From assembly GCA_963833665.1 (NCBI GenBank), contig CAWHZA010000062.1, positions 5,782-69,781 of the forward strand: a stretch of 64,000 bases of DNA, in the 5' to 3' direction. The position numbers were made by a program, and so were the translations under genes. This document shows, piece after piece, positions 31,475 to 64,000 of the stretch (within the stretch, counting starts at the first letter, position 1; each line of letters begins with the position of its first letter). Origin of the DNA: an uncultured Alphaproteobacteria bacterium (GTDB lineage: Bacteria > Pseudomonadota > Alphaproteobacteria > Rhizobiales > Xanthobacteraceae). A model generated the notes under the pieces. It saw nothing but the letters and a program-made list of their open reading frames with translations. It made no database searches and was not told where the DNA came from.

Positions 31475-31497
31475 TGAGGTGCCCGCAGGAAGTGCCG

Positions 31498-32550: not shown

Positions 32551-32748
32551 GAGTTTTACCGGGTTTATCCCGGCCAAGGGGGATCAAGGCCGCGTCGCGC
32601 CGAAGTGATACGGGGTTCACTTCCACTGGCCCGACTCGACCGTGTATGTTGCGGGTGCGAGATGGGAACTTTCCGCCGTCGGCTCGGGGAGCGACGGCAT
32701 CAGATCGCCCGCCGTCATGCGGGGGCGTTGCCTTGGAGGGCGCTGTCA

Positions 32749-33651: not shown

Positions 33652-33660
33652 TCCTTCTTT

Positions 33661-33676
33661 CTCCGGTCCGCCGGAG
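33661..33676. terminator. short GC hairpin between convergent rpoH and the ABC operon
   Basis: ctccgg-tccg-ccggag, 10 nt after the rpoH stop. No clean U-tract, so this is weak. Confidence 0.25.
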
Positions 33677-33727
33677 CGAGCGGCGGCGGGCGCCAAAATC
33701 GCCGCTGTAGAGCGCGCTCCTTCACGC

Positions 33728-36991: not shown

Positions 36992-37038
36992 TCAGCGCGC
37001 TCCGCCGCCGGTCCCGCTTGACCCCCGCCGGGCCATGG

Positions 37039-38286: not shown

Positions 38287-38330
38287 GCGCGCTCTCCCCA
38301 ATCGTTCGTGTTCGTCGTCGCGCCGCGAAA

Positions 38331-39632: not shown

Positions 39633-39730
39633 CTGCTCGCTGGTACTGGTGTTTCCGCCGCATCCTCGATGATGCTTCCGCAATCCCGTCGATGAGGGCC
39701 GATGTTGCGAAACGCACTCCGTCCAATCCA

Positions 39731-42700: not shown

Positions 42701-42926
42701 CTGCCGCGACCTGCGCGGGCGATTCCTGCTGCGGACTTGCCGCTTCGGCCGCGCGCCCGGCGACGGCCTTCAAGAGCCGCCGGCGATTGCCCAGGGAAAG
42801 GCCGAGCTGTTCGAGATCGCGCTCGCTGAGTTCCGGCAGGATATCCATGCCGATGTCGTTCGCTTCGAACGCGTCCGCGTATTGCTCGAGATTGTGCCTG
42901 CGCAACCACTCGCGAAGTTCGCTCAT
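39731..42926 (-). pseudogene. SAM domain - class III adenylate/guanylate cyclase - P-loop ATPase - TPR signalling protein, one frameshift
   Basis: N-terminal SAM (LREWLRRHNLEQYADAFEANDIGMDILPELSERDLEQLGL), then cyclase (VTVLFCDMVGSTAL...FMGDGVLAYFGFP). The frame breaks near 42425 (…IELPDG / HGARARIEIATGLVVVGE…), followed by GEAGIGKSR and long TPR-like helical repeats. Confidence 0.8.
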
Positions 42927-43029
42927 GCCGTGAAATTCCTCGGCCGCGCCGGCGCACCCGCTGCGCGAAACACATCAGCGGGGGCCCATCGTCTGGCGCG
43001 CGGCGAACCTCGGCTCGCGTGTCTCCGCG

Positions 43030-44439: not shown

Positions 44440-44754
44440 TCTCAGTGCCGGCAAACGTATCATACCGAACCCGTCAAATGACCGCTTAGGCGCGGCGATT
44501 GTGCACGGGACCGCAGTCAAAGCATGTCGGCGGCAACGCGCTCAAGCGGGCCGCCGATTCGAGGGCGCCGGCTAGGTGCTCATGGAAGGGATCGTGTTCG
44601 ATGCCGGCGGGCAAGCCGCTCACCGGCAGCTTTCAGGATTACGCGATGCCCCGCGCGGACGACTTTCCCGCGCTCGTTTCGCCCCCGCGCAACGAAAGCG
44701 GCGGCGGAATAGTCCTGTCCTATAAAACGGAACGCAGCCACCGGTCCGTGTTGC

Positions 44755-46362: not shown

Positions 46363-46769
46363 CGCGAGCTCCTTTTCGTGGCGGACTCGGTAGGGCGCGA
46401 CGCGGTGCCTACAGGCTGGTCACCCGCCGCCTCTTCGACAAGCACAAATCCGTGCCTTGGAGATTCCAAGCCCGCGCCGATCACGCGGCAATCGTGACGA
46501 TTGCCAACACGAGCTTCGCAAGGTGCATGCCAGACGGCACTTGCTGCGCGCCTCGAGGACGCTCAAAATGATGAAGACGATGAATTAGCAATAGAATCAG
46601 ATTAGATCAGCGCCGTAGCGTGTCTTAGCAACTGGATTTCTTCGACGACGTCGACTGCCCTGCAGCGATCAAACAATGGTCATTTGCTGTCATAAAAACA
46701 GCAAGCGGCGCACCGCACAGATTGGAATTCGTTTCCGCGTTCTCAGCCAAAATCCGCAGCGCGCTGCGA

Positions 46770-47447
46770 TCAGGGCAGCGCTGCCAGCGAATTGAGCAGC
46801 GGCTGCGACGCCGCGACGGAGCCGAAAATGCCGCCTTGGGCCTTGATCATGGCGAGGCCGGCCTCGTGGAATTGCGGGAAATAGGAAGCGCAGCAATCGG
46901 ACAGCACGACGCAGCGGAAGCCGCGGTCATTGGCCTCGCGCACCGTCGTGTTCACGCAGACTTCCGTGGTGACGCCGCAGACGAACAGCGTATCGATGCC
47001 GCGGTTGCGCAGCATCAGCTCGAGGTCGGTCTGATAGAACGCACCCTTGCCCGGCTTGTCGATCACCGGCTCGTCCTTGAGCGGATAGAGTTCGGGGATG
47101 ATGTCGTGACCAGGCTCGCCGCGCACCAGAATCCGCCCCATCGGCCCGCGCGCACCGATGCGGTTCGCCGGATCGCCACGCTCGACCTTGTGCCGCGGCG
47201 CATCAGAGAGATCGGGCCGATGCCCTTCGCGCGTGTGAATGATCAGCATGCCGCCGCGGCGCGCGGCGCCGAGTACCTGCCGAGAGGGACCGACGGCCGC
47301 CTGCAGGCGCGACACGTCATTGCCGAGCGCGGCCCCAAAGCCGCCGGGCTCGAGGAAGTCGCGCTGCATGTCGATGATCAGCAAGGCGGCGCGGTCGAGT
47401 TCGACCGAAAGCGGGGCCGGTTCCGCTTCGAAAGTGATGTTCGGCAT
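46770..47447 (-). CDS. cysteine hydrolase (isochorismatase-like family; biuret-hydrolase-type is one possibility)
   Basis: ATG at 47447 after GGGGGGA. AALLIIDMQRDFLEPGG..., KPGKGAFYQTDLELMLRNRGIDTLFVCGVTTEVCVNTTVREANDRGF. Confidence 0.8.
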   Translation of the reverse strand: MPNITFEAEPAPLSVELDRAALLIIDMQRDFLEPGGFGAALGNDVSRLQAAVGPSRQVLGAARRGGMLIIHTREGHRPDLSDAPRHKVERGDPANRIGARGPMGRILVRGEPGHDIIPELYPLKDEPVIDKPGKGAFYQTDLELMLRNRGIDTLFVCGVTTEVCVNTTVREANDRGFRCVVLSDCCASYFPQFHEAGLAMIKAQGGIFGSVAASQPLLNSLAALP

Positions 47448-47642
47448 TGCTTCCCCCCAAGCCCAACCGGAAACGGCCTGCAAAAACAGGGCCAGCATAG
47501 CAGTGAAGCCTGCGTCGCGAGCGGCGCGCGCATCCGCGGTGCTTGTCGCTGGTCTTGTCCGGGGGGTCTTGGCACTCGTCCAAGCGCGTGCAACAATCAC
47601 ACAACATCAAGGGCTTAGGCGCGGTTGGGAGACGTTCACGGC
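47448..47642. promoter_or_regulatory. divergent intergenic region between the hydrolase-permease and atzG/E/H-like operons
   Basis: 195-bp gap between divergent starts. Promoters are inferred from the arrangement only; no motif was identified. Confidence 0.3.
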
Positions 47643-47894
47643 ATGAAGCGAAGATCGAATACCGCGCGCAAGGCGAGGCCGCCGGCGCGCTCGGCAAGCT
47701 CAGCGAAGCGGGGCAAGCCCGACGCAATCGACGCCCTGGTCACGGCCAGTGCGCAGGCGCTTGCATTGCCGATCGACCCGGCTTGGCGCGGCGGCGTCCG
47801 GTTCAACCTCCAATTGCTATTGATGGTGGCAGGGCGGGTGGACGAGTTTCCATTGCCCGACGACGCCGAGCCCGCCCCGGTGTTCCATGCATGA
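47643..47894 (+). CDS. AtzG-like small protein (DUF4089)
   Basis: ...[56 protein letters not shown] matches the DUF4089/AtzG pattern. The stop overlaps the amidase start. Confidence 0.75.
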   Translation: MKRRSNTARKARPPARSASSAKRGKPDAIDALVTASAQALALPIDPAWRGGVRFNLQLLLMVAGRVDEFPLPDDAEPAPVFHA

Positions 47895-49290
47895 GGCGAA
47901 GGCCATCGATGTCGCGTGGAGCACGGCAGCCGATATCGCCGCCGTCGTCGCCGCCGGACGAAGCACCGCGGCGAGCATCGTCGCGGCAGCGCTCGCCCGC
48001 ATCCGTGAGCGCGGCCCGCAGTTCAACGCCTTCACCGTGGTGACCGAGGAGCGCGCCCTGGCGCGCGCACGGGCGCTCGACGAAGCGCGGGCGCGGCGTG
48101 ACGCGCTCCCTCCCCTCGCCGGCGTGCCGTTCGCCGTGAAAAACCTGTTCGATATCGCCGGCCTGACGACGCTCGCCGGCGCCAAGATCAATCGCGATGC
48201 GCCGCCCGCGAAACGCGATGCGACGATCATCAGGCGGCTCGAAGCGGCCGGCGCCGTGCTCGTCGGCGCGCTCAACATGGGCGAGTACGCCTACGATTTC
48301 ACCGGCGAGAACATGCACTACGGGCCGTCGCACAATCCGCACGATCTCAAGCGCATGACCGGCGGCTCGTCCGGCGGTTCGGCCGCCGCGGTCGCGGGCG
48401 GGCTCGTGCCGCTCGCGCTCGGCTCCGACACCAACGGATCGATCCGCGTGCCCGCCTCGCTGAGCGGCTTGTTTGGACTCAAGCCCACCTTCGGACGGTT
48501 AAGCCGCGCGGGAACTTTTCCGTTCGTTGCGAGCCTCGATCATACGGGACCGCTGGCGCGGACGACGCGTGACCTGACGCTCGCTTATGATGCCATGCAG
48601 GGCTACGACCCCGACGATCCGGTGTGTGCCGAGCGGCCGGCGGAGCCGGTGGTCGCGCTTCTGGACCGGGGCGTCGAGGACCTGCGCGTCGCAGTTGCCG
48701 GCGGGTATTTCAAAGGCCGCAGCGCCGAGGTGGTCAGCGCCGTCGACCGCGTTGCGGCGGCGCTCGGCGCCAATCGCGAGATCGAGATTCCGGAGGCGGA
48801 GCGAGCACGCGCCGCTGCTTTCGTCATCACCGCGAGCGAAGGGGGAAGCTTGCATCTTCCGCGGCTGCGGACGCGCGCGCGCGACTTCGATCCCGCGGTG
48901 CGCGACCGCCTGATCGCCGGCGCCATGGTGCCGGCCTCGCTGGTGATGAAGGCACAGAAATTCCGCCGCTGGTACCGCGGCGAGGTACTCAAGCTGTTCG
49001 CCGAGGTCGACGCGATCGTGGCACCGGCGACGCCGTGCACCGCGCCGCTGATCGGCCAGCAGACGTTCATGTTCGGCGATACCGAACTGCCGGTGCGGGC
49101 CAATCTGGGCATCTACACCCAGCCGATATCCTTCATCGGCCTTCCCGTCGCCGCCGTGCCGGTGCTGCTCGAGCCGCTGGCAATGGGCGTGCAGATCATT
49201 GCCGCGCCCTGGCGCGAGGACATCGTGCTGCGCATCGCCCATGCGCTGGAGATGAAGGGCGTTGTCGCGGCACCGCGCCCGGAGATTTAG
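47887..49290 (+). CDS. AtzE-family amidase (1-carboxybiuret hydrolase-type)
   Basis: Amidase signature [33 protein letters not shown]. Translationally coupled to a DUF4089 protein and followed by an AtzH-like gene. Confidence 0.75.
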
Positions 49291-49337
49291 GCGCACGCCG
49301 CCTTCACCGAGGTGGAATGCTTGCCTGGAGGAAGAAC

Positions 49338-49724
49338 ATGGAGATCGACCTGCCGGAGGTCATTGCCGAGGTGACCGCCGCCTTCGAGCGTTACGAGAAA
49401 GCACTGGTATCGAACGACGTCGCTGCCCTCAACGCGATGTTCCACAACGACCCGCGCACGATCCGCTACGGCGGGACGGAGAATCTCTACGGCTATGCGG
49501 AGATCGCGGCGTTTCGCACCGCGCGTTCGCCGGTCGGCCTCGGCCGCACGCGGTCGAAGACCGTCATCAGCACCTACGGCCGCGACTGCGCGGTCGCCTC
49601 GACGCTGTTTCACCGCGCCAGCGTGCCCGGCAAGATCGGGCGCCAGATGCAGACCTGGGTCCGCTTTCCCGAAGGCTGGCGGGTCGTCGCTGCCCACGTG
49701 AGTTTTATCGACGAGCCGCGCTGA
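49338..49724 (+). CDS. AtzH-like (DUF3225, NTF2-like) protein
   Basis: ATG at 49338 after [53 protein letters not shown]...[20 protein letters not shown]. Confidence 0.75.
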
Positions 49725-49747
49725 CAATTTCGCCACCCGCAATCCCA

Positions 49748-51547
49748 TCAAACCGATGCTGCCTCCTGCGCCATGAAGGCGCGCCAGCCGCCGAAGCTCG
49801 AAATGTCGCGCGCTCCGGCGACCCCCTCGGCTTCGACCAGAAAGCCTTTGACCTTGCGGCCGTCGCCGAGTTCGAGCGTGCCGATCGACAACGGCGGCGG
49901 CACCGCGGCGACGAAGCGGCCGAACGCGCTGTCTGACAGCGCCCAGACTTCGACCTCGATCGCGGCGCCGGCGCCATTCCTCACGCGCAGGAGGCCCGGT
50001 TTCGGTGGGCGAGCACCGGAAAGCGCGTAGAGGCGGTAGTGCGGCGCCGTTGCTGCACGCTCGATCAGGCGGCCTCCGGCCGCACGCAATTCGCCGTTGA
50101 GCGGCATGCCGGAGAGATGCGCGCCGACGACGGCGATGGGGATTTCCCGGGGCCCGGGCGCCGCCGTCCGCGCAAGCGGCGGCTGCGGGTGCTGGAGCGC
50201 GCCCAGCGGCAGGCGGGCGGCGAAGTGGAATTCACGGCCGATCGCCGCCAGTGCGGCCTCCTCGCCGGCGGGTGCCACCAGCGTCACGCCGAACGGGATG
50301 CCGTCAGGGCGCATCGAGGCCGGTACGGAAAGGCCGCAGAGATCCAGGAGGTTGACGAAATTGGTGTAGGTGCCGAGCCGGCTGTTGAGCCCGATCGGGT
50401 CGGCGAGCACCTGTTCGATCGTGTAGATGGTCGGAGCCGTCGGCAGCACCAGCGCGTCGATCGCGCTGAAGGTGCGGTCGCGCACGCCCCGCAGCTCCGC
50501 GAGCTGATAGAAGGCCGCGAACGCGTCGGCCGCGGTGCCATGCGCGCCGGCGAGAATGATCTGCCGCGTCACCGGATGCAGGGATTGGGGCGACGAGGCC
50601 ACGAGCGCGCGCGCCGTGAGATAGCGCTCGGCGACCCACGGCCCCTCGTAAAGAAGACGTGCCGCCGCGTAGAACGGCTCAATGTCGATCTCTACGATCT
50701 TCGCGCCGAGACCGGCGAAATCTGTGAGCGCCGCCGCGTAGGCCGCCTCCGAGGCGCGGTCGCCGAAGAACAGGCGCTGGCCGGGAATCGGCACGCCGAG
50801 CCGCAATCCGTCCGGCATCGGTCCGACCGGGTGCACCTGCCGCGGATGCGAAAACGGATCGGCAGGATCAGCGCCGGCGATCGCGCTCAGCGTGGTCATT
50901 GCGTCGTCGACAGTGAAGGCGAGGATCGACACGCAATCGAGCGTGCGGCAGGCGGGCACGACGCCTGCGGCCGAGACGAGGCCGCGGCTCGGCTTGAGGC
51001 CGACCACGTTGCTGAAGGCGGCGGGGACGCGGCCCGATCCCGCCGTATCGGTGCCGAGCGCGAGCGGAACCAGCCCGGCCCCGACGGCGACCGCCGAGCC
51101 CGAGCTTGACCCGCCGGGAATGAGCTTCGCGTCGAACAAGTTGCGCGGAATGCCGTAGGGCGTGCGCACGCCGACGAGGCCGGTCGCAAACTGGTCGAGA
51201 TTGGTCTTGCCGAGAACGAGCGCGCCCGCCGCGCGCAGCCGCGCGACGGCGGTGGCATCCTTGTTTGGGCGGTAAGCGTAGGCGGGGCACGCGGCGGTCG
51301 TGGGCAGGCCTTTGACGTCGATATTGTCCTTGACCGCAACGGGGATGCCGTAGAGCGGAAGCGACGTGTCGGCGGCGCCAGCGAGTTCGCGCGCCTCGGC
51401 GAGAACCTCGGCTTCTTCCCGCAGCGCGATGAAGATCGCCGGATCGGCGTGGGCACGGATGCGCGCAAAGCTGCGCGCGACGACGTCCTCAGGCTTTGCA
51501 GCGCCGCCGCGATAGGCGCTCAGAATCTCGGCGACCGTTTCGGTCAC
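49748..51547 (-). CDS. atzF: allophanate hydrolase
   Basis: Amidase signature ([33 protein letters not shown]) plus the allophanate-hydrolase C-terminal domain (...YRLYALSGARPPKPGLLRV...IEVEVWAL...GFLVEAEG). The start is GTG 51547 or upstream ATG 51607. Confidence 0.85.
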   Translation of the reverse strand: MTETVAEILSAYRGGAAKPEDVVARSFARIRAHADPAIFIALREEAEVLAEARELAGAADTSLPLYGIPVAVKDNIDVKGLPTTAACPAYAYRPNKDATAVARLRAAGALVLGKTNLDQFATGLVGVRTPYGIPRNLFDAKLIPGGSSSGSAVAVGAGLVPLALGTDTAGSGRVPAAFSNVVGLKPSRGLVSAAGVVPACRTLDCVSILAFTVDDAMTTLSAIAGADPADPFSHPRQVHPVGPMPDGLRLGVPIPGQRLFFGDRASEAAYAAALTDFAGLGAKIVEIDIEPFYAAARLLYEGPWVAERYLTARALVASSPQSLHPVTRQIILAGAHGTAADAFAAFYQLAELRGVRDRTFSAIDALVLPTAPTIYTIEQVLADPIGLNSRLGTYTNFVNLLDLCGLSVPASMRPDGIPFGVTLVAPAGEEAALAAIGREFHFAARLPLGALQHPQPPLARTAAPGPREIPIAVVGAHLSGMPLNGELRAAGGRLIERAATAPHYRLYALSGARPPKPGLLRVRNGAGAAIEVEVWALSDSAFGRFVAAVPPPLSIGTLELGDGRKVKGFLVEAEGVAGARDISSFGGWRAFMAQEAASV

Positions 51548-51799
51548 GAAAGGCTCCGTGTTGGCGCGGGCCCGGCAACCGCGTTCGCCGGGCTCCTTTT
51601 GTGCCAATCCCGGTGACTTCGCAATGGGGCTGGGGCGCCGGTGGTTCTTGAAGTGTAGAGAAGCAACTCAGGAGCCATCGGCCGCCGCATCCGCGTCTGC
51701 AATCCTTCGGGAGGGCAGATCGGTGAGCGAGGCGAAACCCACCACCGTTCCAAGACCGGCATGATGTGTTTCGCAAATGCTCGCCTCATCCTCCGCGCT

Positions 51800-52117: not shown

Positions 52118-52696
52118 CGCCTGACTCCAGCACTGATTTTGTTTGACAACTCACGACAAGCGTTCTCGCGGCGCATCGTCTGCGCCCGAGGTTTGTTCAC
52201 ACGCCGCCACAAAGCAAAAGCTACGAAGCATTGCCTCCCGCGAAAAGAGGGAAGCGGAGCGCCGAAAGGCGCATTGTCCAACCAATGTCCGCGTCAAGCG
52301 CGGCCGCGCGCTGCTGTCTTGGCGGCGCGCCGCCTTTCGGCGCTCACGCTTGCGGCACTCGCCACCGGCTTCTACCCCGATGGCTCGGCTCCAGAACCGG
52401 GTTTCCCGCGCTTTTGACTGACGGGTGCTATTCCCGCTTCGCCAAACTGCCGCGGTTAAGCACGCTCCGTGCGGAGTCCTTGTGCCGGTCGACCGGGGAT
52501 CCGAAGCCGCCCGGGTGCGGAGCGGCATCCTCCGCCCGCGGGCACCGCAGCTCGCTCTCGTCTTTGCGGCATGCCTTCCGGAAAGGCGCCCTCAATCGAG
52601 CGAGATTTGGTGTCTGTATCTGAATTGGAGACAGATGTCAATGAAAAAGTGACAGGTTCTGACAGGGCGATTATCCGGCCGCTGACAAAAAGGAAT

Positions 52697-53653
52697 ATGC
52701 CCCTCCTACGCTTCGTAGGAGAAACGGTAAAATGGTTTCTCCTGCGGCTGCTGGGGATCAATATGGCAGACGAAGCATCGGAAACGATGGCGGGGGCGCT
52801 CAAGAATTGGCTTGGCGCGCTCGGTTTCATCGCGCCATTGGTCGCCCATTTTGTCGATACGCAGCACCCCTCTTTGCCGCCGTGGGCGAGTATTGCTCTT
52901 ATGCTTGCTGGCTTGGCGATTTATGCCTCGCCAGTAGCGTGGATGAGGGTCACGGGGCGGGGGCAAAAGCCAATGGCGATTGCAGTCATAATCGTGAGCG
53001 CGCTTGGTCTTATGTTTGGAATTTATCTTTTGGCGAGGCCATCCGCTTCTGCGCCACCTCAAACGCCAACCGACGATGCCGAGAAGCCCACGCTCACTGG
53101 ACCGCCAATGTTCGGCGAGGCATATACGAAACCGCCGCCGCCTAAAAACTATTTTCCTAACGAGAAGATTGAATTGGGCAACCTTCTAACAGTCGTTGGA
53201 AGGCTTTTTGATGACGGAGTGGCTGGTTTTGCGGAAGCAAGTAATTTCAACAATCCTCTTCCAAATGTAAAGCCACTGCTTGTGCAGAGACGGCGCGAGG
53301 TTGGACTTACTGATAGTCGCATAAGTAATATGTCGGAGTATCTGGACGAGCTCGTTCGACAAAATCCGCGCTATCGATCGGAAATAGCCTCCGTCCTCGG
53401 TAAATCGTTGACCGGTGCTGTTAGCATAGAAATTCCATCCATCCATAGATTTCTGGAACTCAGTCGCGCATTTACTGGTGATCTAGATAGCACTCTTCAG
53501 CGATACGATAGCATTGACTCAAAAACTCTGAACTGGGTGCTAACAATAATCAGCAGAGAAGGCATGTCAGCCGGGAATGAATTAAACAACGTCAAGACAT
53601 GGATCGATCAATGCACTAGCCGAATCGATAAAATGCGAGAGCAACTCAAATGA
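52697..53653 (+). CDS. hypothetical membrane protein (lower-GC, no recognised domain)
   Basis: The ORF is in visibly AT-richer DNA. It has two to three N-terminal TM segments, a Pro-rich linker (PPQTPTDDAEKPTLTGPP...KPPPPK) and a ~200-aa soluble part. The start is 52697 (after AAGGA) or 52763. Confidence 0.5.
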   Translation: MPLLRFVGETVKWFLLRLLGINMADEASETMAGALKNWLGALGFIAPLVAHFVDTQHPSLPPWASIALMLAGLAIYASPVAWMRVTGRGQKPMAIAVIIVSALGLMFGIYLLARPSASAPPQTPTDDAEKPTLTGPPMFGEAYTKPPPPKNYFPNEKIELGNLLTVVGRLFDDGVAGFAEASNFNNPLPNVKPLLVQRRREVGLTDSRISNMSEYLDELVRQNPRYRSEIASVLGKSLTGAVSIEIPSIHRFLELSRAFTGDLDSTLQRYDSIDSKTLNWVLTIISREGMSAGNELNNVKTWIDQCTSRIDKMREQLK

Positions 53654-53739
53654 TGGAGTGCTTTACTTTGGAAATGGCAATCCCAATTGTTCCGGTTCAG
53701 GCTCGCTGGCATCGTTGTCGGTTAGCTGAGACGGATGCC

Positions 53740-53900
53740 AGTGACCACGCCTCAGCAGCCTGCTATCGCCGTCCCGAAACATGTCGGGGTTGTTCCAGTT
53801 GCTATGCCGGAATTGAAATTAGGCAACGTACAGCGGCGTATATTTCGCGCACATCTTGTGGAACGTCCCCATCACGCCGCGCTTAAGAGCGACCGAATTG
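53740..53900 (-). pseudogene. IS1595-family transposase C-terminal fragment
   Basis: The reverse strand reads SVALKRGVMGTFHKMCAKYTPLYVA*FQFRHSNWNNPDMF. This is the ISXO2-like C-terminal motif, with an in-frame stop. Confidence 0.5.
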
Positions 53901-54000
53901 CGCAACGGCGACGCGCTTACACACGTCGCAGAGGAAGTTTCGACAAAAAGCAAGAGCAAAAGCAAGGCCTAGGCGCCTTCGGTGAGCTACGGGGAGAACT

Positions 54001-54181
54001 TTGCCCGTGGCGCTCGCGCGAACCGCTAGCTTCGCGCATGGTCGGCACGCTTCATTTCGGAATCGTGCAACGCATGACCGCTCCACGCCGAGGCCATCTA
54101 TTCGGAAACGAAGGGCCGATGATTTCGAGACGCCGGTCTACTATCCGGACCCTGACAGGCTGCGCGAGGAACTGCACCGGA
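54001..54181 (+). pseudogene. 5' part of a host ORF interrupted by the IS3 element
   Basis: ...FETPVYYPDPDRLREELHR reads straight into the IS end. Removing the IS and one CGGA copy restores the frame into 55450 onward. Confidence 0.5.
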
Positions 54182-54199
54182 TGACGTTGCCCCCAGTTT

Positions 54200-55120
54200 T
54201 TATCCAGCGGCGATTGGAGTCTGGCGTTCGACGTTACCCTCTTGGGTGGTGATGGCGGCGGTCCGCGGAGCGGAGCCGTCCGTGTAGCGAAGCGCAGCGG
54301 ACCGCCGGTCCGCAGCGTAGATCGCTGGGCTCATCCAACCGAGCCGCGAGTGCGGCCGGTTGGTGTTGTAGTCCGCGCGCCAGGCTTCGAGCGCAGTGCG
54401 TGCATGGGCCAGCGATCGGAACAAGGTCTCATTGAGCAACTCGTCCCGCAAGCGGCCGATGAAGGACTCGGCAAAGGCATTCTGCACGGGCTTGCCCGGC
54501 GCGATGTAGTGCCAAGCCACCTTGTGATCGTCCGCCCATTGCAGGATGACGTTCGAGGTCAGTTCGGTGCCGTTGTCGGAGACAATCATCTTCGGCGTGC
54601 CGCGATCGGTCAGCAGCCGGTCGAGTTCTCGGGCGACCCGCACACCTGAGATCGAGGTGTCGGGAACGAGCGCCAAGCATTCGCGGCTGCAGTCGTCGAC
54701 CACGACCAGGATGCGCAGGCGACGGCCGTCGTTGAACTGGTCGGCGACGAAGTCGAGCGACCAGCGCTCGTTCGGCAGTTGCGGCACCAGCATCGGTGCC
54801 CGCGTTCCCAGGGCCCGCTTGCGCCCGCCGCGCCGGCGCACCGTGAGCCCTTCCTCGCGATAGAGCCGAAACAGACGCTTGTGGTTCACCGTAAAACCCT
54901 CCCGCCGTAGCAGCACATGCAGGCGCCGATAGCCAAAGCGGCGGCGTTCATGGGCCAGAGCCCGTAGCCGCTGCCGCAGCTCGGTATCGTCCGGCCGGCG
55001 CGAGCGATACCGCACTGTCATCCGCATACAATCGATCGTCCTGCACGCCCGCCGCTCGCTCATGTCGAACGCAGTACGCAAGTGAGCGACAGCCTTTCGC
55101 TTGGCAGCGGGCGTCACCAT
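54200..55120 (-). CDS. IS3 family transposase OrfB (DDE integrase core)
   Basis: ...[14 protein letters not shown]...[12 protein letters not shown]...[18 protein letters not shown]...[26 protein letters not shown]. Expressed as an OrfAB fusion by -1 slippage at AAAAAAA (55120-55126). Confidence 0.9.
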
Positions 55121-55380
55121 TTTTTTGCTAGCAGGTCCTTCAGGGCCGCGTTGTCCAGCATCGCGTCCGCTAACAACTTCTTCAGCCTGGCGTTCTCGCT
55201 TTCCAGCCCCCGCAGCCGCTTGGCTTCGGAGACCTCCAGCCCGCCGTACCTGGCTTTCCAGTTGTAGAAGCTTGCTTCACTGATCCCGTGCCTGCGGCAC
55301 AGATCGGCCGTCTTCATCCCGGCCTCGTGCTCCTTCAGGATCGCAATGATCTGCTCTTCCGTATACCGCTTCCGCTTCAT
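55114..55380 (-). CDS. IS3 family transposase OrfA (HTH)
   Basis: [71 protein letters not shown]. Confidence 0.9.
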
Positions 55381-55445
55381 CGTCTGGTCCTTTCCCGTGG
55401 ACCAGACTCCAGGTCGTCTTGGATCAATTCAAGGGGGCAACGTCA

Positions 55446-55612
55446 CGGATTCTCGGCGAGGCGCGCGCGGCCAAGACGATCCCTTGGGACGCGGACCGGA
55501 CGGCGCTCTATCGTACATCTTTCCTCAGATGACCGGCTGTTTGCCGGAAGATGAGGGCGCGCAGTTGCGCTTTGATTTCGAAACCGAAATGGCGCGGCTG
55601 GAAGCAGCATAA
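55446..55612 (+). pseudogene. 3' part of the host ORF interrupted by the IS3 element (also frameshifted)
   Basis: ILGEARAAKTIPWDADRTALYRT, then after a 1-nt shift IFPQMTGCLPEDEGAQLRFDFETEMARLEAA. Confidence 0.45.
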
Positions 55613-55750
55613 CCCTTGCGTTCGCGGGGCACGACGAGCGAGCGGGCCTCAGCGTGCCGATCCCCTTCTGTAGTCCGATCGGGGAAGGTCAAGCCCTCTT
55701 GGGGCTTCAACTCAAGTCGGCTTCTGCAGCAAGAGCGGTCATGCCTGGAC

Positions 55751-55788
55751 GGCGCGACCAAGTCGCATTTTGACCCATAACGGACATC
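55751..55788 (+). repeat. REP-like repeat, partial copy D
   Basis: ggcgcgaccaagtcgcattttgacccataacggacatc matches the 3' third of copies A and B (gtcgca-tttgaccc-a-g-ac). Confidence 0.5.
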
Positions 55789-55862
55789 AGCAGTCGGCTG
55801 GAGCCGGGGTTATAGTGCAGTGTCGCCGAGAAGGTCTCTAGCATCGGACACTGGTAGCTCTC

Positions 55863-56492
55863 ATGGACAAGCCGGCATCAAAGCCCACGCTTCGCTCAAG
55901 GGCCGAAAGGATTAAGGAGTTCCGATGCAAGAACTTGATCGTCGTAATTGAGCATCCCGATGACATCAGAAACATTGGCGCCATCATTCGAAACGTAAAC
56001 GCGCTGGGCGCCGAAAAGGCCTACATAATCACAAATCGTAAGTTGCTACCCGATGAATGGCAGGAAATGCGTGTTAAACCGAAGCTTAACGCCATATCCG
56101 CCTCAGCGATCAAATGGAGTTTCGTCAAGATATTTAAGGATACCCATAGCTGCATGGATCACTTGGAGAAAAACGGGTTCATTTCGCTTGTTACGTCGCC
56201 TCACGTCAAAGGACTGAGAAACGTAGTGCTACATGATCACGACTACACTCCTTATAAAAAGCTTGCGATCTGGTTTGGGAACGAAGGAAGGGGCATCAGT
56301 CAGACGGCTCTCGAAAGGAGTGATCTTTGCATTAACATCCCCATGTACGGAATTATTGAAAGCTTAAATTTGGGTACGTCGTCTGGTATAGTGCTCTATG
56401 AAATTACAAAGCAACGCCGTGCATTTCAGTTGAATCTGAAAAAGAAGATTGCTGCGAAAAGAACCGCAGCAAGTAGAACGCCGCCAATGTAG
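55863..56492 (+). CDS. SpoU/TrmH-family RNA 2'-O-methyltransferase (low-GC orphan)
   Basis: LIVVIEHPDDIRNIGAIIRNVNALGA, FGNEGRGIS and INIPMYGIIESLNLGTSSGIVLYE are the three SPOUT/SpoU motifs. Visibly AT-rich codon usage. Confidence 0.8.
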   Translation: MDKPASKPTLRSRAERIKEFRCKNLIVVIEHPDDIRNIGAIIRNVNALGAEKAYIITNRKLLPDEWQEMRVKPKLNAISASAIKWSFVKIFKDTHSCMDHLEKNGFISLVTSPHVKGLRNVVLHDHDYTPYKKLAIWFGNEGRGISQTALERSDLCINIPMYGIIESLNLGTSSGIVLYEITKQRRAFQLNLKKKIAAKRTAASRTPPM

Positions 56493-56553
56493 CGCGTTCC
56501 AGGCGGCGTTTTCAGTCCTTCAACCTGTAAACATCCGATGTCCGGTGTTGGCC

Positions 56554-56658
56554 CTAAACTGACGTGCCAATCGCGTTAGCGCATGTCTGCTTTGAGGGGG
56601 AAGAGCGGAAGTGGCGCCGACTTGCTGCCATGTCGCAGTTTGACCCACAAGAGACATT
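56554..56658 (+). repeat. REP-like repeat, copy B (apparently complete)
   Basis: ctaaactgacgtgccaatcgcgttagcgcatgtctgctttgagggggaagagcggaagtggcgccgacttgctgccatgtcgcagtttgacccacaagagacatt. Confidence 0.85.
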
Positions 56659-56838
56659 AGCCGGATCGAAATCCCGCAATGCGAGATAGGCGCTACGCGC
56701 CCCGATCTGGGACATGTTGCCCGGTCGTAACCCCGCCGCCGTAGCCGATGCGCTGGTCACACTGCTGCTGGCACATGTGATCGTACACAACGCCCACGAT
56801 CCGGCGACGATGGCCGCGGCACTCGCACTCGCGGTCGA

Positions 56839-57348
56839 TCAGGACGACGCCGACGTAGAGCCGGGCAAGCGTGGCAACCAGCGCGACGCGTTGGCGCAAT
56901 AGGTGTCGTACTCCGCTCCAAATCTCCTACGCAGCGTCGGCTCCTCATAAGCCAGAACGAAGATGTGGAAGCCAATCCACAGTAGCGCGCCGTAGACCAG
57001 AAGCCTTGCGTTTCCGAGGATCAGTCCTTGGCCAAGTACAATCGCCACTAGGGCAAGATAGATCGGATTGCGGACATAACGATTGGGGCCGGTGATCACC
57101 AAATGTAGCGTTGGTGCGACCGGCGCTGGCGTGCCGCCGCCTTGCAGCGCAAATCGTGTGAAGGTGTCGACCAACACCGGAATGCCGAGCAGGATCAGAA
57201 CCACGCCGAACCATCGGATAAGCTGGAGATCGAAGAACGGCGCTTGCAGACGCCATCGCGAAATCCACCACGGCACGACACCGGCGACCGTCGTGGGGGC
57301 AATCAGAAAAAAGACCGCCGACCCCAGAACTGCCAAGCCTCTGGTCAT
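56839..57348 (-). CDS. isoprenylcysteine carboxyl methyltransferase (ICMT/PEMT-like) family membrane protein
   Basis: 169-aa, 4-5 TM segments. ...GPNRYVRNPIYLALVAIVLGQGL... and EEPTLRRRFGAEYDTYC are typical of this family. Confidence 0.6.
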   Translation of the reverse strand: MTRGLAVLGSAVFFLIAPTTVAGVVPWWISRWRLQAPFFDLQLIRWFGVVLILLGIPVLVDTFTRFALQGGGTPAPVAPTLHLVITGPNRYVRNPIYLALVAIVLGQGLILGNARLLVYGALLWIGFHIFVLAYEEPTLRRRFGAEYDTYCANASRWLPRLPGSTSASS

Positions 57349-57557
57349 GATGTTGCTCCGGCCTCACAAATCCCAGCGTGCGCGTCATAGCCCGATGGCG
57401 AACGCGTAGTGTCCATCTTCATCGACCGTGGCGCGCCAGCCCCGACATCGAGGCGCCGGCTCACGCACGCCAACAACTATCTTATCGTTAAATCGCGACG
57501 GCCCTGCGAAAGCGTCTCGACCAAGCCCACAGTCCAGCACATCGGGCATCCGCGTAG

Positions 57558-58442
57558 CGCGACGAGGGCGCGGAGTCCCTCCAGCCCATCGGCGCGTTCA
57601 AGTTGCGCGGCGCGTACCACACGGCGGCGGTCCTCCCGCCCGACGAGCGCGCCCGCGGGCTGATCACGTACTCGTCGGGCAACCACGCGCAGGGCGTGGC
57701 GCGGGCGGCCAGGCTGTTCGGCGTCCCGGCCGTCATCGTCATGCCGTCGGACGCGCCCCCGCTCAAGAAGGCCCGGGTCGAGGCCGACGGCGCCGAGGTC
57801 GTGGTGGTGGGCACCGCGTCCGACGAGCGCAAGCGGGTGGCCGAGCGGATCGCGGCCGAGCGTGGCCTCGCGATCATCCCGCCCTATGACGACCGCCGGA
57901 TCGTGGCCGGCCAGGGGACGTGCGGCCTGGAGATCGCCGAGGACATGCCCGACGTGGCGGTCGTGCTGGTGCCGGTCGGCGGGGGCGGGCTGGCGAGCGG
58001 CGTTGCCGCGGCGATCCGCGCGCTGGCACCCCGGGCCAGGGTGATCGGCGTGGAGCCCGAGCTTGCCGCCGACGCCCGCGAGTCCCTCGAGACGGGGCGC
58101 ATCGTCCGCTGGGAGGCGGAGCGGGTCAGCCGCACCATCGCCGATGGCACGCGCACGCAGTCGCTCGGGCGGCTCAACTTCGCGCACCTGTCAGTGCAGA
58201 TGGACCGTGTGGTCACGGTCTCCGAGGTGGAGATCGCCGCCGGCGTGCGACTGGCCGCCGAGGAGGCGCGGCTCGTGGTCGAGCCCTCGGGCGCTCTGCC
58301 GGTCGCCGCGATGCGGTTCCATGCCCGAGAGCTGGGCCTCGACCCGGCCGACGGCCCGATCGTCGGCGTCGTGTCGGGCGGCAACGTGGACCCCGACCGC
58401 TACCGGGAGTACCTCGCCGCGTCGGTGCCGCCGGAGGGCTGA
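57558..58442 (+). pseudogene. PLP-dependent threonine/serine dehydratase, 5'-truncated
   Basis: The open frame begins right after an in-frame TAG (57555-57557) with ...ESLQPIGAFKLRGAY..., then SSGNHAQGVA, VPVGGGGLASG and VVSGGNVD. About 50 N-terminal residues are missing. Third codon positions are almost all G/C. Confidence 0.8.
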
Positions 58443-59420
58443 CCCGCGAGCAGCCGGCCGTCGGCCGTGTCGAGCCGGCGGTCCGCCCGGACCGCCCGCC
58501 GCTCCTCATCGCGCATCCAGGCGATCACGAGCAGCAGCACGATCACGATGAAGATCAGGTCGCCGCCGACCCACATGATCCCGCCGGCGAGCTGCTGGTC
58601 CTGCAGCGCCGTCGAGCCCCAGGTTCGTCCCGCGTCGGCGTAGTGCGGGTAGAGCGGCTCGGGAGCCATGAAGATCGCCAGGGCCAGGAACGTCATCTGG
58701 GGCATCTGGAGGCCCGTGTAGAGGACGCTCGCCGCCGGGCTGAGTCGCCACGGCGCCGGGTTGCGGCCGACCACCGGCAGCCAGAACAGGAGCGCCGACA
58801 CCAGGTACAGCAGGTGCTCGCCATCGTGCACCCAGTTGTTCTCGAGGGACAGCTCGTAGATCGGCGAGAAGTGCGTGCCCCAGAGCACCGCGGCGAACAG
58901 GACCCAGGCCACCGCCGGCCGCGCGAGCACCCGCAGGAGGCGCGAGTGGAGCACCGGGAGGAGCCACCGCCGGCGGATGTCGGGCGTCGCCGCCTGGAGG
59001 GCCAGGGTCACCGGCCCGCCGAGGAGCAGGAGCGGGGGTGCGATCCAGGGTCAGCAGCAGGTGCTGGACCATGTGGTCGCTGAGCAGCGTGTCGTCGTAC
59101 ACGCCGATCCCCGAGTCGAGCGCGACCAGCACGACCGCGACGCCGGCCACGAACGCCGCCGTGCGGGCCGCTGAAACTCCGTGGTCGGGGTGCGCACGGT
59201 TGACGCGACGCACGCACGCCAGCCACAGCGCGAGCGTGGCGATCGCTGGCAGCCACACGGTGGGGTCGAACGCCCAGTCGAGCACGAACGAGGCGGCCGT
59301 GGGGGCGGGGAGGACCCCGGCGTCGTCGGCAAGGGCGACGCGGGCTGCGACGAGCGCGAGCGACAGGCCCATCGAGGCGGCGGGGACGGCGAGGACGATC
59401 CGGCGGGCCACGACGGGCAT
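58400..59420 (-). pseudogene. cytochrome c oxidase assembly factor (CtaG / Caa3_CtaG family), one frameshift
   Basis: N-terminal ORF ...DDTLLSDHMVQHLLLTL joins, after a 1-nt shift near 59040, to IAPPLLLLGGPVTLALQAATPDIRRRW...GTHFSPIYEL...HLLYLVSALLFWLPVVG... Confidence 0.7.
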
Positions 59421-59588
59421 TGTCCCCGATTCCCGGAAATCCGCCCCCGCCGGCGTGTCGACCTTGGGTGCCGAGGGTCACGCCGCCGATGGGCCGTTCG
59501 GACCCCATCACGGCCGATGTCGATATGATGGACGTCGGCTGCGGCTCGGCTCCCGGCGAACCGGCGTGGCCGCCAGCCGGACGGAGAG

Positions 59589-60272
59589 GTGACGATGAGC
59601 GCCGACGCCGCCGCCCTGCCCGCCTCGGCGGGCCATGCGCAGCCGGTCGGCCACGCCGCACGCGGACTGGGCAACCCGGTCCTCGGCATGCTGCTGTTCA
59701 TCACCTCCGAGGTGATGTTCTTCGCCGGGCTGTTCGCCGCCTACTTCTCGATCCGGGCCGGCCACACGGAGCTCGTCAACGGCGTGGCGACGCACGTTTG
59801 GCCGCCCGTCCAGGACACGGGCATCCTGAACCCGTGGCGCCTGACCACCGAGTCGGGGGCGCTCAACGTGATCCTGCCCGCGACGATCACCCTGGTGCTC
59901 TCGTCGTTCGTCTGCCAGTTCGGCCTGCGGGCGATCCGGCGAGGCGACCAACGCACGTTCGTCCGCGCGATCAGCGTCACGCTCGTTATGGGCGTCGCCT
60001 TCCTGCTGCTCCAGGCCTACGACTACACCGTCCTCGTGCGCGAGGGCCTGACGCTGGGCTCCGGCCCGTTCGGAACCACGTACTTCACCCTGACCGGCTT
60101 CCACGGACTCCACGTGCTCGGCGGCACGCTGATGCTCGCCCTCGTGGCCTACCGGGGCCGCGCGCGGCAGTTCAGCGCCCGCCGCCACGACATGGTGGAG
60201 GCGGTGTCGCTGTACTGGCACTTCGTCGATGTGGTCTGGGTTGTCCTCTTCTCGGTGCTGTACTTGGTGTAG
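59589..60272 (+). CDS. ctaE: cytochrome c oxidase subunit III
   Basis: MLLFITSEVMFFAGLFAAYF..., YFTLTGFHGLHVLGGTLMLA, VSLYWHFVDVVWVVLF. Uninterrupted 227-aa ORF. Confidence 0.85.
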   Translation: MTMSADAAALPASAGHAQPVGHAARGLGNPVLGMLLFITSEVMFFAGLFAAYFSIRAGHTELVNGVATHVWPPVQDTGILNPWRLTTESGALNVILPATITLVLSSFVCQFGLRAIRRGDQRTFVRAISVTLVMGVAFLLLQAYDYTVLVREGLTLGSGPFGTTYFTLTGFHGLHVLGGTLMLALVAYRGRARQFSARRHDMVEAVSLYWHFVDVVWVVLFSVLYLV

Positions 60273-60299
60273 CGCACGAGGGCGTGGCGGAAGGCCGGT

Positions 60300-60498
60300 T
60301 CGCGGGGCGTTCGACAACCGCGACAACCTTCCCCACAATCTGGAGATCCGCGACGCGACCGGCAAGGTGCTGTTCGAGGGCGGCATCGTCACCGGACCCG
60401 TCGTCACTGTCAACGACCTCCCTGCCCTCCCCGCAGGCCACTACCCGTTCGTCTGCACGGTCCACCCGGCGATGACGGGGACGCTGACCGTCAAGTAG
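60300..60498 (+). pseudogene. cupredoxin (plastocyanin/azurin-like) C-terminal fragment
   Basis: FDNRDNLPHNLEIRDATGKVLFEGGIVTGPVVTVNDLPALPAGHYPFVCTVHPAMTGTLTVK carries the copper-ligand pattern (H...C..H....M). There is no signal peptide or first half of the domain upstream. Confidence 0.6.
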
Positions 60499-60502
60499 GT
60501 AT

Positions 60503-61016
60503 CGAGCCATTCGCCGTCTGCTCACCCTCCCCGCCGCGGTCCTCGCGATCGCGCTGCTCGTCGCCGCGTGCGGCAACACCTCCGGCCCCCTCCCCGCCGT
60601 GGGCCACCAGGCGCCCGCCATCGCGGGCACCGCGCTCGACGGGTCGGCCGTCAGCCTCGCGGGCCTGCGGGGCCATCCCGTGGTGGTCAACTTCTGGGCG
60701 TCGTGGTGCATGCCCGTGCCGCGACGAGTTCCCGATGTTCCGGGACAAGCTGACGGCCCTCGGCCCCGCCGACGGGCTCGTCGTCCTGGGCGTGCTGTAC
60801 AAGGACGAGGCCGACCTCGCCAAGTCGTTCGTGACCGACTTCGGCGCCACCTGGCCCACGGTCACCGATCCCGACGGGTCGATCGCGGGCGCCTACCGGA
60901 TCACGGCGCCGCCCCAGACGTTCTTCATCGACAAGGACGGCGTCATCCGCGCGATCCAGATCGGCCAGATGACCGCGGACGTCTTCGACACCCAGTACGC
61001 GAAGATCAAGCCGTGA
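60503..61016 (+). pseudogene. TlpA/ResA-type thiol-disulfide oxidoreductase lipoprotein, frameshifted inside the CxxC motif
   Basis: ...LAIALLVAACG (lipobox)...LRGHPVVVNFWASWCMP, then after a 1-nt shift near 60715 CRDEFPMFRDKL...PQTFFIDKDGVIRA. No start codon in frame. Confidence 0.65.
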
Positions 61017-62010
61017 CCGTGCTCGACCCCGCCGACGGCATCGCGGTCCGCGTCAGCGACGTCCGCAAGGCGTACGGCGCCCGCCAGATCCTCTCCGGCG
61101 TGTCCTTCGAGGTGCGCCGCGGTGAGCTGCTCGGCCTGCTCGGGCCCAACGGCGCCGGCAAGACCACGACCGTCGAGATCCTCGAGGGCTACCGCAGGGC
61201 CGATGCCGGCGCCGTGCGCGTGCTGGGCCTCGACCCGGCGAAGGACGGCGACGCGCTGCGGCCGCAGGATCGGGCTGATGCTCCAGGAGGGCGGCATCGA
61301 CAACCGCTCCACGCCGCACGAGGTGCTGCGGCTGTACGCCCGGTTCTACCGGGACCCGGAGGACCCAGACCGATCTGCTCGAGTCGGTGGACCTCGCGCG
61401 CGCCGCCTCCACGCGGTACCGGCGCCTGTCGGGCGGCGAGCGCCAGCGCCTCTCGCTGGCGATCGCGCTGCTCGGGTCGGCCCGAGCTGCTGGTCCTCGA
61501 CGAGCCCACCGCGGGCATGGACCCGGCCGCGAAGCAGGCGACGCGCGAGCGGATCGCCGGGCTGCGCGCTGCCGGCACCACGATCCTGCTGACGACCCAC
61601 GAGCTCGGCGACGTCGAGCGGCTGGCCGACCATGTCGCGGTGCTCGACCGCGGGCGCATCGTCGCGTACGGAACGCCGGCCGAGCTCGACCGGCGCCGGC
61701 GCGCCGCGGGTCCGGTTCCGGCTGTCGGCGGCGCTGTCGGACGGCGACGGCGTGGCGCTCGCGACCGCCGCCGTCGCAGGGGCGCACGCCCCGGATGCAC
61801 GGGTCGTCGGTGCGGGCGTCGGCCACCACTACGAGCTCGAGGGCCTCGCCGACGCGCCCGACCCGGCGCTGGTCGCCCGGCTCGCCGCGTGGTGCGCCGA
61901 GCGCGGGCTGCTGATCACGGAGCTGCGCCTCGGCGCCGCGAGCCTCGAGGAGCGCTACCTCGAGCTGGTGGGCGCGGACGCCGCGGCCGAGGCGGAGGGC
62001 GAGGGCATGA
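61013..62010 (+). pseudogene. ABC transporter ATP-binding protein with several frameshifts
   Basis: GTG overlaps the previous stop. Walker A is GPNGAGKTTT. Later motifs are found in other frames: IGLMLQEGGI, LSGGERQRLSLAIALLG, LLVLDEPTAGMDP, LLTTHELGDVERLADHVAVLDRGRIV. At least three shifts between 61260 and 61700. Confidence 0.7.
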
Positions 62011-62807
62011 GCGCGGCGAACGGATCCCGGCTCCTGGGCGACGCGGCATCGCCCGCGCCGCCGGCGTCGTGGGGCGCGAAGGCGCTCGCGCTGACGGCGA
62101 ACGAGCTGCGCCTGGCGATGCGGCGCAGCGAGAGCCTGCTGATCACGTTCGTCATCCCGGCCGGCGTGCTGCTGGTGTTCTCCGCCTTCGACCTGTCCGG
62201 CGGCACCGCGACCGGCAAGCCGGTGGACCGGATGCTGCCCGGCTCGATGTCGCTCGCGGTCATCGCCGCGTCGATGGTGTCGCTCGCGATCGCGACCGGC
62301 TTCGAGCGCTCGTACGGCGTCATCAAGCGGCTCGGCGGGTCGCCCGCCGGCACGTCGGCGCTGGTGCCGTCCAAGACGGCGGCGGTGATCGTCGTCGAGG
62401 CCGTGCAGATGGTGCTGCTCGTCGGCCATCGCGGTGCGCGCTCGGCTGGACGGCCGGACCCACGGCCTCGCGCCGCTGGTGCTCGCTCGGGCTGGTGCTG
62501 GGCACCGTCGCGTTCGCCGGGCTTCGGGCTGCTGATGGCGGGCACGCTGCGCGCGGAGGCCGACGCTGGCGCTGGCCAACCTGCTGTTCCTGCTCTCGCT
62601 GGTGATCGGCGGCATCGTGCTGCCGCTCGACCGCCTGCCGGCGACGGTCGCAGCGGCGTCCGGGCTGCTGCCCGCGGCCGCGCTGACAAGGTGCTGACGA
62701 TCGGCCTCGGCGGCGCCACCGGCGACGCGACCGAGTCGGTGGTCGTCCTCGCCGTGTGGGCGGTCCTGCTCGCGGGCCTCGCCGCCCGCAAGTTCCGCTG
62801 GGACTGA
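62007..62807 (+). pseudogene. ABC-2 type transporter permease with frameshifts
   Basis: MSAANGS...LTANELRLAMRRSESLLITFVIPAGVLLVFS...SLAIATGFERSYGVIKRLGGSP is readable. The central part is only readable in other frames (LGWTAGPTAS...LVLGTVAFAGL). The tail is ...VVVLAVWAVLLAGLAARKFRWD. Confidence 0.6.
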
Positions 62808-62940
62808 CCGTCAACCACCCGTCGGCCCCGTTCGGCAGGCGCTCGTCGGCCCGAAGGCAGCGAGCCCGGCTCCCCGTGCAGCGATCCGCCGGGCGTCTGC
62901 CGCGAACAAGGGTGAACAGCGACCAGCCCAGAGGTATTCC

Positions 62941-63727
62941 GTGCGCTCCGACACCGCCCGCCAGGCCGTCACCGTCCTGGCATTCCTCCTCACGATCGCC
63001 CTCAATACCGCCGCCACCACGATCCCGCTCGGCGGGCAGGCGACCAACGTGATCAGCGACAGCTTCCACGTGCTACGTGATCCCCGCGGGCTACGTGTTC
63101 GCCATCTGGGGGCTGATCTACACGCTGCTCGGCGCGTTCACGGTCTGGCAGGCGCTGCCCCGAAGCCGAGCGGAGGCGGTCCTCCGCGACCTCGGATGGC
63201 TGCCGGCCCTGAGCGGCGCGCTCAACTCGGTCTGGATCGTCCTGTTCCAGTACCGCGTCTTCGTGCTCACCGTGCCGGTGATCGTGGCCCTGCTGGTCAC
63301 GCTCATCGCGATCCACTTCCGGCTGTGGGCCCACCGGACCGCGCTGCGGGGCCGCGCCTACTGGCTCGTCCGCGCGCCGTGGTCCGTGTACCTGGGCTGG
63401 ATCACCGTGGCCACCATCGCCAACGTCGCGCAGACGCTCTCGTCGCTCGGCTTCGACGGCTTCGGCATCGAGCCCGCCCTGATCGCGGCTTGTGTCCTGC
63501 TCCTCGGGCTCGCGATCGCGGCACGGTTCGTCGGGCGGTTCGGCGACGCCGCGTACGGCTGGGTGATCGTCTGGGCCTACGCAGGCGTGGCTGTGAAGGA
63601 GTGGGCCACCCCGCTGGTGGCAGGCACCGCGCTCGCGGGCGCGCTGCTGGTCGCTGTGCTGGTCGTGGCCGCGATCCTCGGCCGTCGATCCGCGAGGGGT
63701 CCGCGCGGCAGTGCTGCGACGGCCTGA
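62941..63727 (+). pseudogene. TspO/MBR-like tryptophan-rich membrane protein, frameshifted near the N-terminus
   Basis: MRSDTARQAVTVLAFLLTIALNTAATTIPLGGQATNVISDSFHV, then after a shift near 63075 IPAGYVFAIWGLIYTLLGAFTVWQALP...APWSVYLGWITVATIANV. Confidence 0.5.
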
Positions 63728-63804
63728 CGATCGGTACGGCGGCGGCGCCGGGCCGCGGCATCCCCGTGCGGGCGGCTTCCGGCCCATCGCGCTAGCCTGA
63801 GGGC

Positions 63805-64000
63805 ATGACCTCGCGAACGTCGCGCCTCGCGCCGGCTCGCCGTGACGCTCACGGCCGCCGCGATCGCGTTGGCGGGCTGCGCTGCGGGCGCCCCGACACC
63901 CTCGGTGATCATGCTCGACCCCAGCGCCACCCCGGCGCCGATCGGCGTCCGCGACACCGCGTACGACCCGCCCAGGCCGGAGCCGCCACTCCGGCTGACC
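63805..64000 (+). pseudogene. possible SCO/SenC-type lipoprotein, partial at the window end and frameshifted
   Basis: MTSRTSRLAP..., then in the next frame LAVTLTAAAIALAGCAAGAPTPSVIMLDPSATPAPIGVRDTAYDPPRPEPPLRLT (lipobox LAGC). Only the N-terminus is visible, so the family call is weak. Confidence 0.3.

Follow-up and report, generated by a model that had tools for sequence, protein, structure and literature searches.

A Probable Chimeric Join of Alphaproteobacterial and Chloroflexota DNA Within a Long-Read Metagenome Contig

The window analyzed here (the whole stretch of DNA, 64,000 nt) contains an abrupt seam, which is very probably an artifact of a chimeric long-read metagenome contig (73,557 bp, in both ENA and NCBI) rather than a biological structure, as judged from sequence comparisons. 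At this seam, DNA of an abundant Xanthobacteraceae-like alphaproteobacterium (positions 1–57570) would be joined end-to-end to DNA of a rarer, Ca. Limnocylindrales-like member of the Chloroflexota (57571–64000), both of which live in the same soils. Both flanks continue uninterrupted in their own native contexts in other assemblies (13 left-native and 4 right-native contigs), and all of these contigs diverge from the window at 57570/57571. A chimeric contig was one of the explanations raised in the preliminary description of this DNA, and it is strongly supported by the native flanks found elsewhere, a blunt join, two cut genes, the failure to find the join in the searched collections, and a higher indel rate on the right.

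Position and Anatomy of the Junction

The window holds several compositional regimes, and its sharpest compositional break lies near 57.5 kb. In a tetranucleotide scan of adjacent 5-kb windows, the distance peaks there at 0.053, compared with a mean of 0.020 and a standard deviation of 0.008 over the window. The GC content rises across the seam from about 0.57–0.66 to 0.73, or from 0.58–0.65 to 0.75–0.77 in 200-nt windows at the seam itself, and the GC3 of coding-looking ORFs, which is 0.85 or lower everywhere to the left, is 0.94–0.96 from 57558 onward. The preliminary description had reported an abrupt seam within 57392–57610 and G or C at almost every third codon position to its right, and had suggested that tetranucleotide profiles be compared; the comparison, now run, agrees with the first observation, and the GC3 values agree with the second.

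Alignment to native relatives sets the exact breakpoint between 57570 and 57571. In three-way alignments of the window with the left-native contig L002 and the right-native contigs L022, L011, L112, and L023, the left parent reads ...GAGGGCG/GCAACG at the breakpoint (marked by the slash), the right parent reads ...CTCAAGG/CGGAGTCC, and the window reads ...GAGGGCG/CGGAGTCC. The features on either side of the junction are as follows.

54200–55380, minus strand: IS3-family insertion sequence (orfA 55114–55380, orfB 54200–55120; Pfam HTH_Tnp_1, rve, rve_3, and HTH_21)
56839–57348, minus strand: PEMT/ICMT-type methyltransferase, the intact gene nearest to the seam in the left block (Pfam PEMT, 1.4e-11; identical protein on 20 contigs)
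57477–57570, minus strand: 3' remnant (~31 codons) of a 71/79-aa ORF (coordinates mapped from L002 9633–9872)
57570–57571, no strand: junction, blunt, where both parents have no more than 1 nt (G) in common in the three-way alignments
57571–58442, plus strand: PLP-dependent threonine/serine dehydratase without the first 47 codons (Pfam PALP match starting at profile position 29; 290/290 identity to residues 48–337 of P0121)

One gene is cut on each side of the breakpoint. On the right, the dehydratase has lost codons 1–47, in keeping with the earlier remark that it starts mid-domain and is about 50 residues short. The earlier remark that a gene is cut at the junction holds for the dehydratase and needs correction on the left, where a small minus-strand ORF is cut as well and keeps about 31 codons. 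The native place of this 71/79-aa ORF is after an ECF sigma factor gene. No Pfam family was matched by the ORF, and its reading as an anti-sigma factor would be a guess taken only from the position after the sigma factor gene. An in-frame TAG (57555–57557) and an AT-rich string (57471–57495) had also been pointed out at the seam; both are present, but they are native left sequence in 13 out of 13 native contigs and do not mark the junction.

As the preliminary description had stated, the junction carries no recognizable boundary element: no tRNA, inverted repeat, direct repeat, IS end, or integrase was found at 57570. The element closest to the join is the IS3 copy, which lies 2.2 kb to the left and not at the join, and the sole tRNA gene in the window (30931–31006) is 26 kb away. 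With these distances and no repeats, IS3-mediated capture and a tRNA-associated island were both rejected as explanations of the seam. A mis-overlap during assembly was likewise discarded as the principal cause: apart from the single nucleotide, at most, that they have in common at the breakpoint, the two parents show no similarity.

Native Context of the Left Block

The relatives of the left block were gathered by exact lookup of the PEMT protein in public assemblies, which returned ten contigs with Flye-style names (ENA ERZ250394xx-5xx). An exact lookup of the protein of the SpoU methylase, also located in the left block (Pfam), added further relatives, including short-read JGI contigs. The segment adjoining the seam is summarized as one feature.

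30931–57570, no strand: left block, a native chromosome segment (99.6–99.9% identity to L002/L105, L003, L007, L013, and L104–L111; RpoH best named match Xanthobacteraceae)

This segment is collinear with one 280-kb contig (represented by L105 and L002; ERZ25039458 contig_23956) and with seven others, and it is thus a normal chromosomal segment. Every left-native contig that reaches the seam matches the window at 99.6–99.9% identity up to 57570 and no further. Thirteen independent contigs from at least eight samples all proceed past 57570 into the same other sequence (GCAACGCCCGC...), which encodes the remainder of the 71/79-aa ORF, the ECF sigma factor (184 aa), and a YgaP-like membrane protein. 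The right block is absent from all 13 of these contigs, which come from the same or sister strains.

The taxonomic signal on the left agrees with the alphaproteobacterial origin proposed earlier. The RpoH gene (32.7–33.6 kb) has its best named match in Xanthobacteraceae (91% identity), and the MFS gene of the 1–30.9 kb island belongs to a 90%-identity cluster that includes a protein named for Pseudolabrys sp. A plasmid search with the left block returned only weak matches of 72–76% (IS3, and atzF on Rhizobium plasmids), all of them from Hyphomicrobiales, and the same search with the right block returned only short ABC-cassette matches. Judging from these searches, neither side of the seam is a known plasmid.

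Native Context of the Right Block

Four independent contigs (L022, L112, L023, and L011) start to match the window exactly at 57570 and carry different sequence upstream. The native upstream sequence of the right parent ends in ...GGCTCAAGG, and in this context the full-length dehydratase gene is preceded by a DksA/TraR zinc-finger gene and a YHS gene. The closest of the four, the 3.1-kb short-read contig L022, is 99.89% identical to the window over 1858 nt (57570–59427) and encodes the full-length 337-aa dehydratase P0121, which falls in the 90% cluster of its L011 relative. The 117-kb contig L112 is 96.95% identical over 6.4 kb (57570–64000), and the short-read contigs L113 and L114 are, like L112, about 97% identical to the right block. 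The identity is 93% for the JGI contig L023 and 88–92% for the 463-kb contig L011, which was found by a homology search with the dehydratase fragment. At position 64000, where the window ends, it is still collinear with the Chloroflexota contigs L011 and L112.

The closest named homologues of the right block belong to Candidatus Limnocylindrales (Chloroflexota), with 83–90% identity. A scan of GTDB representatives with the full-length dehydratase provides phylum-level support, with no close genome among the matches listed: the best of the matches listed is a Chloroflexota MAG (70%), whereas the Actinomycetota among them reach only 44–46%. The preliminary description had assigned this block to Actinobacteria, an assignment that these matches contradict and that was misled by the high GC content. 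Beyond the dehydratase, the right block contains the following genes.

58400–59420, minus strand: Caa3-type CtaG assembly factor with a 1-nt insertion at 59045 (Pfam Caa3_CtaG; tblastn frames -1 and -3; the upper end, ~59420, is an estimate from the 339-aa CtaG of L112)
59589–60272, plus strand: cytochrome c oxidase subunit III (CtaE), intact (Pfam COX3, 2e-33; 93% identity to the L011 protein)
60680–62804, plus strand: genes for a TlpA-like redoxin, an ABC ATPase, and an ABC-2 permease, each interrupted by single-base indels (Pfam domains split between frames)
62941–63727, plus strand: gene for a 261-aa membrane protein with a 1-nt insertion at 63072 (tblastn frames 1 and 2; intact at 261 aa in L113 and L114)
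63821–64000, plus strand: start of an SCO1/SenC-type gene, which extends beyond the window; 1-nt insertion at 63830 (tblastn to L011 SCO1; indel against 4 references)

The gene families named earlier from the translations alone were recovered here by Pfam and tblastn searches, including the PEMT/ICMT-type methyltransferase on the left and Caa3_CtaG, COX3/CtaE, an AhpC/redoxin protein, and an SCO1-type protein on the right.

Single-Base Errors on the Two Sides of the Seam

The right block contains 15 window-specific 1-nt indels in 6.4 kb (2.3 per kb), each of which recurs against two to four of the references used (L011, L112, and the short-read contigs L022, L113, and L114). Within 60680–62804, indels occur at 60712, 61370, 62003, 62423, ~62438, 62487, ~62518, 62560, and 62688. 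In tblastn searches with L011 proteins, the genes for CtaG, the redoxin, the ABC ATPase, and the 261-aa protein are each split between frames. The extra C of the CtaG insertion is missing from the short-read contig L022. When the indels are removed, the reading frames are full-length and free of internal stops; the corrected redoxin is identical to the L011 redoxin at 108 of 112 residues, and close alignments with L011 are obtained for the other corrected proteins as well. The broken genes of the right block reflect sequence errors and not decay.

In contrast, the left block has no indels relative to short-read sequence over 3200 nt (L014, 100% identity) and 2223 nt (L015), and a single indel relative to L002 in 10.7 kb. 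As a proxy for read depth, this contrast suggests that far fewer reads support the right side, a difference that we infer from the error rates of the two sides.

The indel density within the right block is uneven, with 1 indel in 57.57–59.4 kb versus 14 in 60.7–64 kb. The block also differs from the short-read contigs by about 3% substitutions, and these contigs form a strain cloud that is itself 98–99.5% similar. The uneven density is not simply explained by a single raw read, and several reads or strains therefore probably contributed to the right-block consensus.

Broken gene calls also occur in related Flye-style contigs (L003, L005, L006, L009, L013, L108, and L112), where they affect tannase, isochorismatase, and LysR genes, and the dehydratase in L112 is called at only 130 aa. 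The presence of such split genes in related assemblies suggests that they too reflect indel errors, which seem to be common in the lower-coverage contigs of these public assemblies. Contig names of a matching form (MFD...bin...contig_N) are used by a Nanopore-only soil project that assembled with metaFlye and polished with one round of Medaka (the Microflora Danica long-read paper, PMC12313526), and the naming of the related assemblies indicates that they may belong to this project.

The Junction in Public Collections

A 40-mer spanning the junction had no matches in the GTDB representative genomes, and a 30-mer spanning it had none in the JGI metagenomes. As a positive control, the right-hand 32-mer alone does find a native contig. 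The truncated and frameshifted products of the right block (P0003, P0299, P0301, and P0303) comprise a 279-aa truncated dehydratase, a 203-aa CtaG fragment, a 391-aa out-of-frame ORF, and a 216-aa fragment, and for each of them a single contig is recorded, 73,557 bp long, with NCBI and ENA as the sources. For the exact SpoU protein of the left block (P0137), the longest contig recorded also has 73,557 bp. The join thus seems to be present in the deposited contig and not to have been made by the choice of the window. Moreover, both organisms occur together in one sequencing run, ERR12035936 (L019 and L022).

Origin of the Join

The most likely route to the junction is a chimeric long read, which could have arisen when two fragments were ligated during library preparation or when two molecules were read as one. 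The assembler may then have used the chimeric read to extend or bridge a contig, and the thinly covered right part would have been left with uncorrected single-base indels after polishing. The lack of any mark at the join, the failure to find the join elsewhere, the single 73,557-bp contig, the indel contrast between the two sides, and the co-occurrence of the two organisms are all consistent with a well-covered alphaproteobacterial contig to which a low-coverage Chloroflexota fragment was attached by a chimeric read or a misjoin of the assembler. The seam resembles the misjoins of long-read metagenome assemblies that result from chimeric reads or graph errors in its blunt junction, the co-occurrence of the two organisms, and the intact parental contexts elsewhere. 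It also shares with them the genes cut on both sides, the lack of a mobile-element signature, the sharp step in composition, and the many uncorrected indels on the right. One point of difference is that a misjoin from a single raw read would give a uniform indel density, unlike the uneven density of the attached block.

The alternative that survives best is a real and very recent transfer, in which a Chloroflexota fragment was joined into the alphaproteobacterial chromosome by illegitimate, end-joining-type recombination in an IS-rich region. The left flank is plastic and IS-rich, which makes real rearrangements there more likely a priori and counts against a chimera: it is mosaic between strains, with IS3, IS110, IS91, and integrases in varying arrangements, and a 3.2-kb IS3–SpoU–PEMT module has other flanks in L014. 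Donor and recipient of such a transfer also co-occur in one run. However, the join is located at no IS end, shows neither a target duplication nor repeats, destroys a gene on each side, and offers only a single boundary. It occurs in no other contig found, and 13 contigs have an uninterrupted left context. With a GC3 of 0.96, the foreign block shows no amelioration, and a free-living strain matches it at 99.9% identity. Single-base errors that are absent from short-read assemblies, and not decay, account for the broken genes of the block. We regard a recent transfer as very improbable, and its fullest form, in which a soil Xanthobacteraceae cell physically captured Chloroflexota chromosomal DNA by illegitimate end-joining within a hyper-plastic region rich in IS elements and the join was caught in one sample before being removed by selection, as slightly more improbable again.

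Horizontally acquired genomic islands of the tRNA- or integrase-associated type share with the seam an abrupt change in GC, GC3, and tetranucleotide composition, and best matches in another phylum. Their boundaries, unlike the seam, are marked by an integrase, a tRNA, direct repeats, or an IS end. The seam further differs from them in cutting both the target and the first cargo gene mid-domain, and the block is absent from 13 sister contigs and nearly identical to a free-living donor strain.

It is less probable still that the window represents two separate contigs that were concatenated (e.g., within one contaminated bin), so that two contig ends came to lie side by side. Genes are cut on both sides of the seam, as they would be at contig ends, but the products specific to the right block (P0003, P0299, P0301, and P0303) are found on a single contig of 73,557 bp, and the left-block protein P0137 lists a contig of 73,557 bp too. 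This length exceeds that of the window, and both blocks thus seem to sit on one deposited contig.

An ancient cross-phylum acquisition, now a stable part of the alphaproteobacterial genome, was the other explanation raised in the preliminary description, and although the cross-phylum gene content and the contrast in composition (and these only) are what such an event would leave, it is refuted to the point of being next to impossible by the near-identity of the block to present-day native Chloroflexota (99.89% to L022, that is, 99.9% over 1.86 kb to a native strain from the same sample set, and about 97% to L112–L114), by the lack of compositional amelioration (GC3 0.96), and by the presence of the block in 0 of 13 same- or sister-strain contigs of the recipient.

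Variability of the Left Flank

Apart from the seam, the alphaproteobacterial part of the window contains several features of its own. A tRNA-Glu(CTC) gene (30931–31006, minus strand) is located exactly at a GC step from 0.59 to 0.66. All eight native contigs that have 30931–46992 in common with the window diverge from it, and partly from each other, to the left of 30914–30931, and the region from 1 to 30.9 kb thus looks like a strain-variable island. It is likely an IS-rich island at a tRNA hotspot, of the classical kind bounded by tRNA-Glu. The region contains two IS110 elements, an IS5-like DDE element, an IS630-like DDE_3 element, a trehalose-6-P synthase gene, and the MFS gene. Domains D1–D4 of a group II intron match at 22982–23204 on the plus strand (Rfam RF02005, 159 bits), adjoining an IS110 transposase gene (23632–24810), and the related contig L006/L012 has a reverse transcriptase (RVT_1+GIIM) in the same neighborhood. 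The gene for a molybdopterin-binding oxidoreductase subunit (MoCoBD_1 and MoCoBD_2; 18460–20914, minus strand) is present as two overlapping ORFs split near 19.5 kb, which suggests a frameshift, either an error or a pseudogene.

Nearer to the seam, a cluster at 46770–51607 resembles the pathway of cyanuric acid, biuret, and allophanate. Its genes are as follows.

46770–47600, minus strand: isochorismatase-family hydrolase
47824–49290, plus strand: amidase
49748–51607, minus strand: allophanate hydrolase with an AH_C domain

Small AtzG-like and AtzH-like genes are called between the cluster genes in the identical native contigs L002 and L013. The region from the allophanate hydrolase to PEMT varies among related contigs through insertions of IS110, IS91, integrases, and group II introns. 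Low-GC patches (0.42–0.55) are found within the alphaproteobacterial block at 52600–54200 and 55800–56600, and the ORFs at 52469–53653 and 53735–54184 had no Pfam match.

The 3.2-kb segment with IS3, the SpoU methylase, and PEMT (54182–57381) is 100% identical in the JGI short-read contig L014, where it has unrelated flanks and breakpoints at 54182 and 57381. Either the segment moves as a unit or the short contig L014 is misassembled. Between IS3 orfA and the SpoU gene, there is a non-coding stretch of 342 nt (55446–55787), which has copies of 91–97% identity at one or two further sites in the majority of related contigs (e.g., L002 8013–8354 and 2824–3164) and no second copy in the window. 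This stretch is a dispersed repeat and is possibly what the preliminary description called a "REP-like repeat".

Implications for Public Records and Comparative Analyses

Biologically, the seam has no importance, as it holds no new element or mechanism. Its relevance lies in the records: the chimeric contig of 73.5 kb appears to be present in public ENA and NCBI entries, and probably in a MAG, and at least 6.4 kb of Chloroflexota DNA would count as alphaproteobacterial in those records. The possible harm includes false signals of cross-phylum transfer, false "pseudogenes", and a wrong taxonomy of the cytochrome oxidase assembly genes. The combination used here, in which the exact proteins flanking a seam are looked up in other assemblies and the indel density is compared between its two sides, offers a cheap diagnosis of misjoins that works without the reads.
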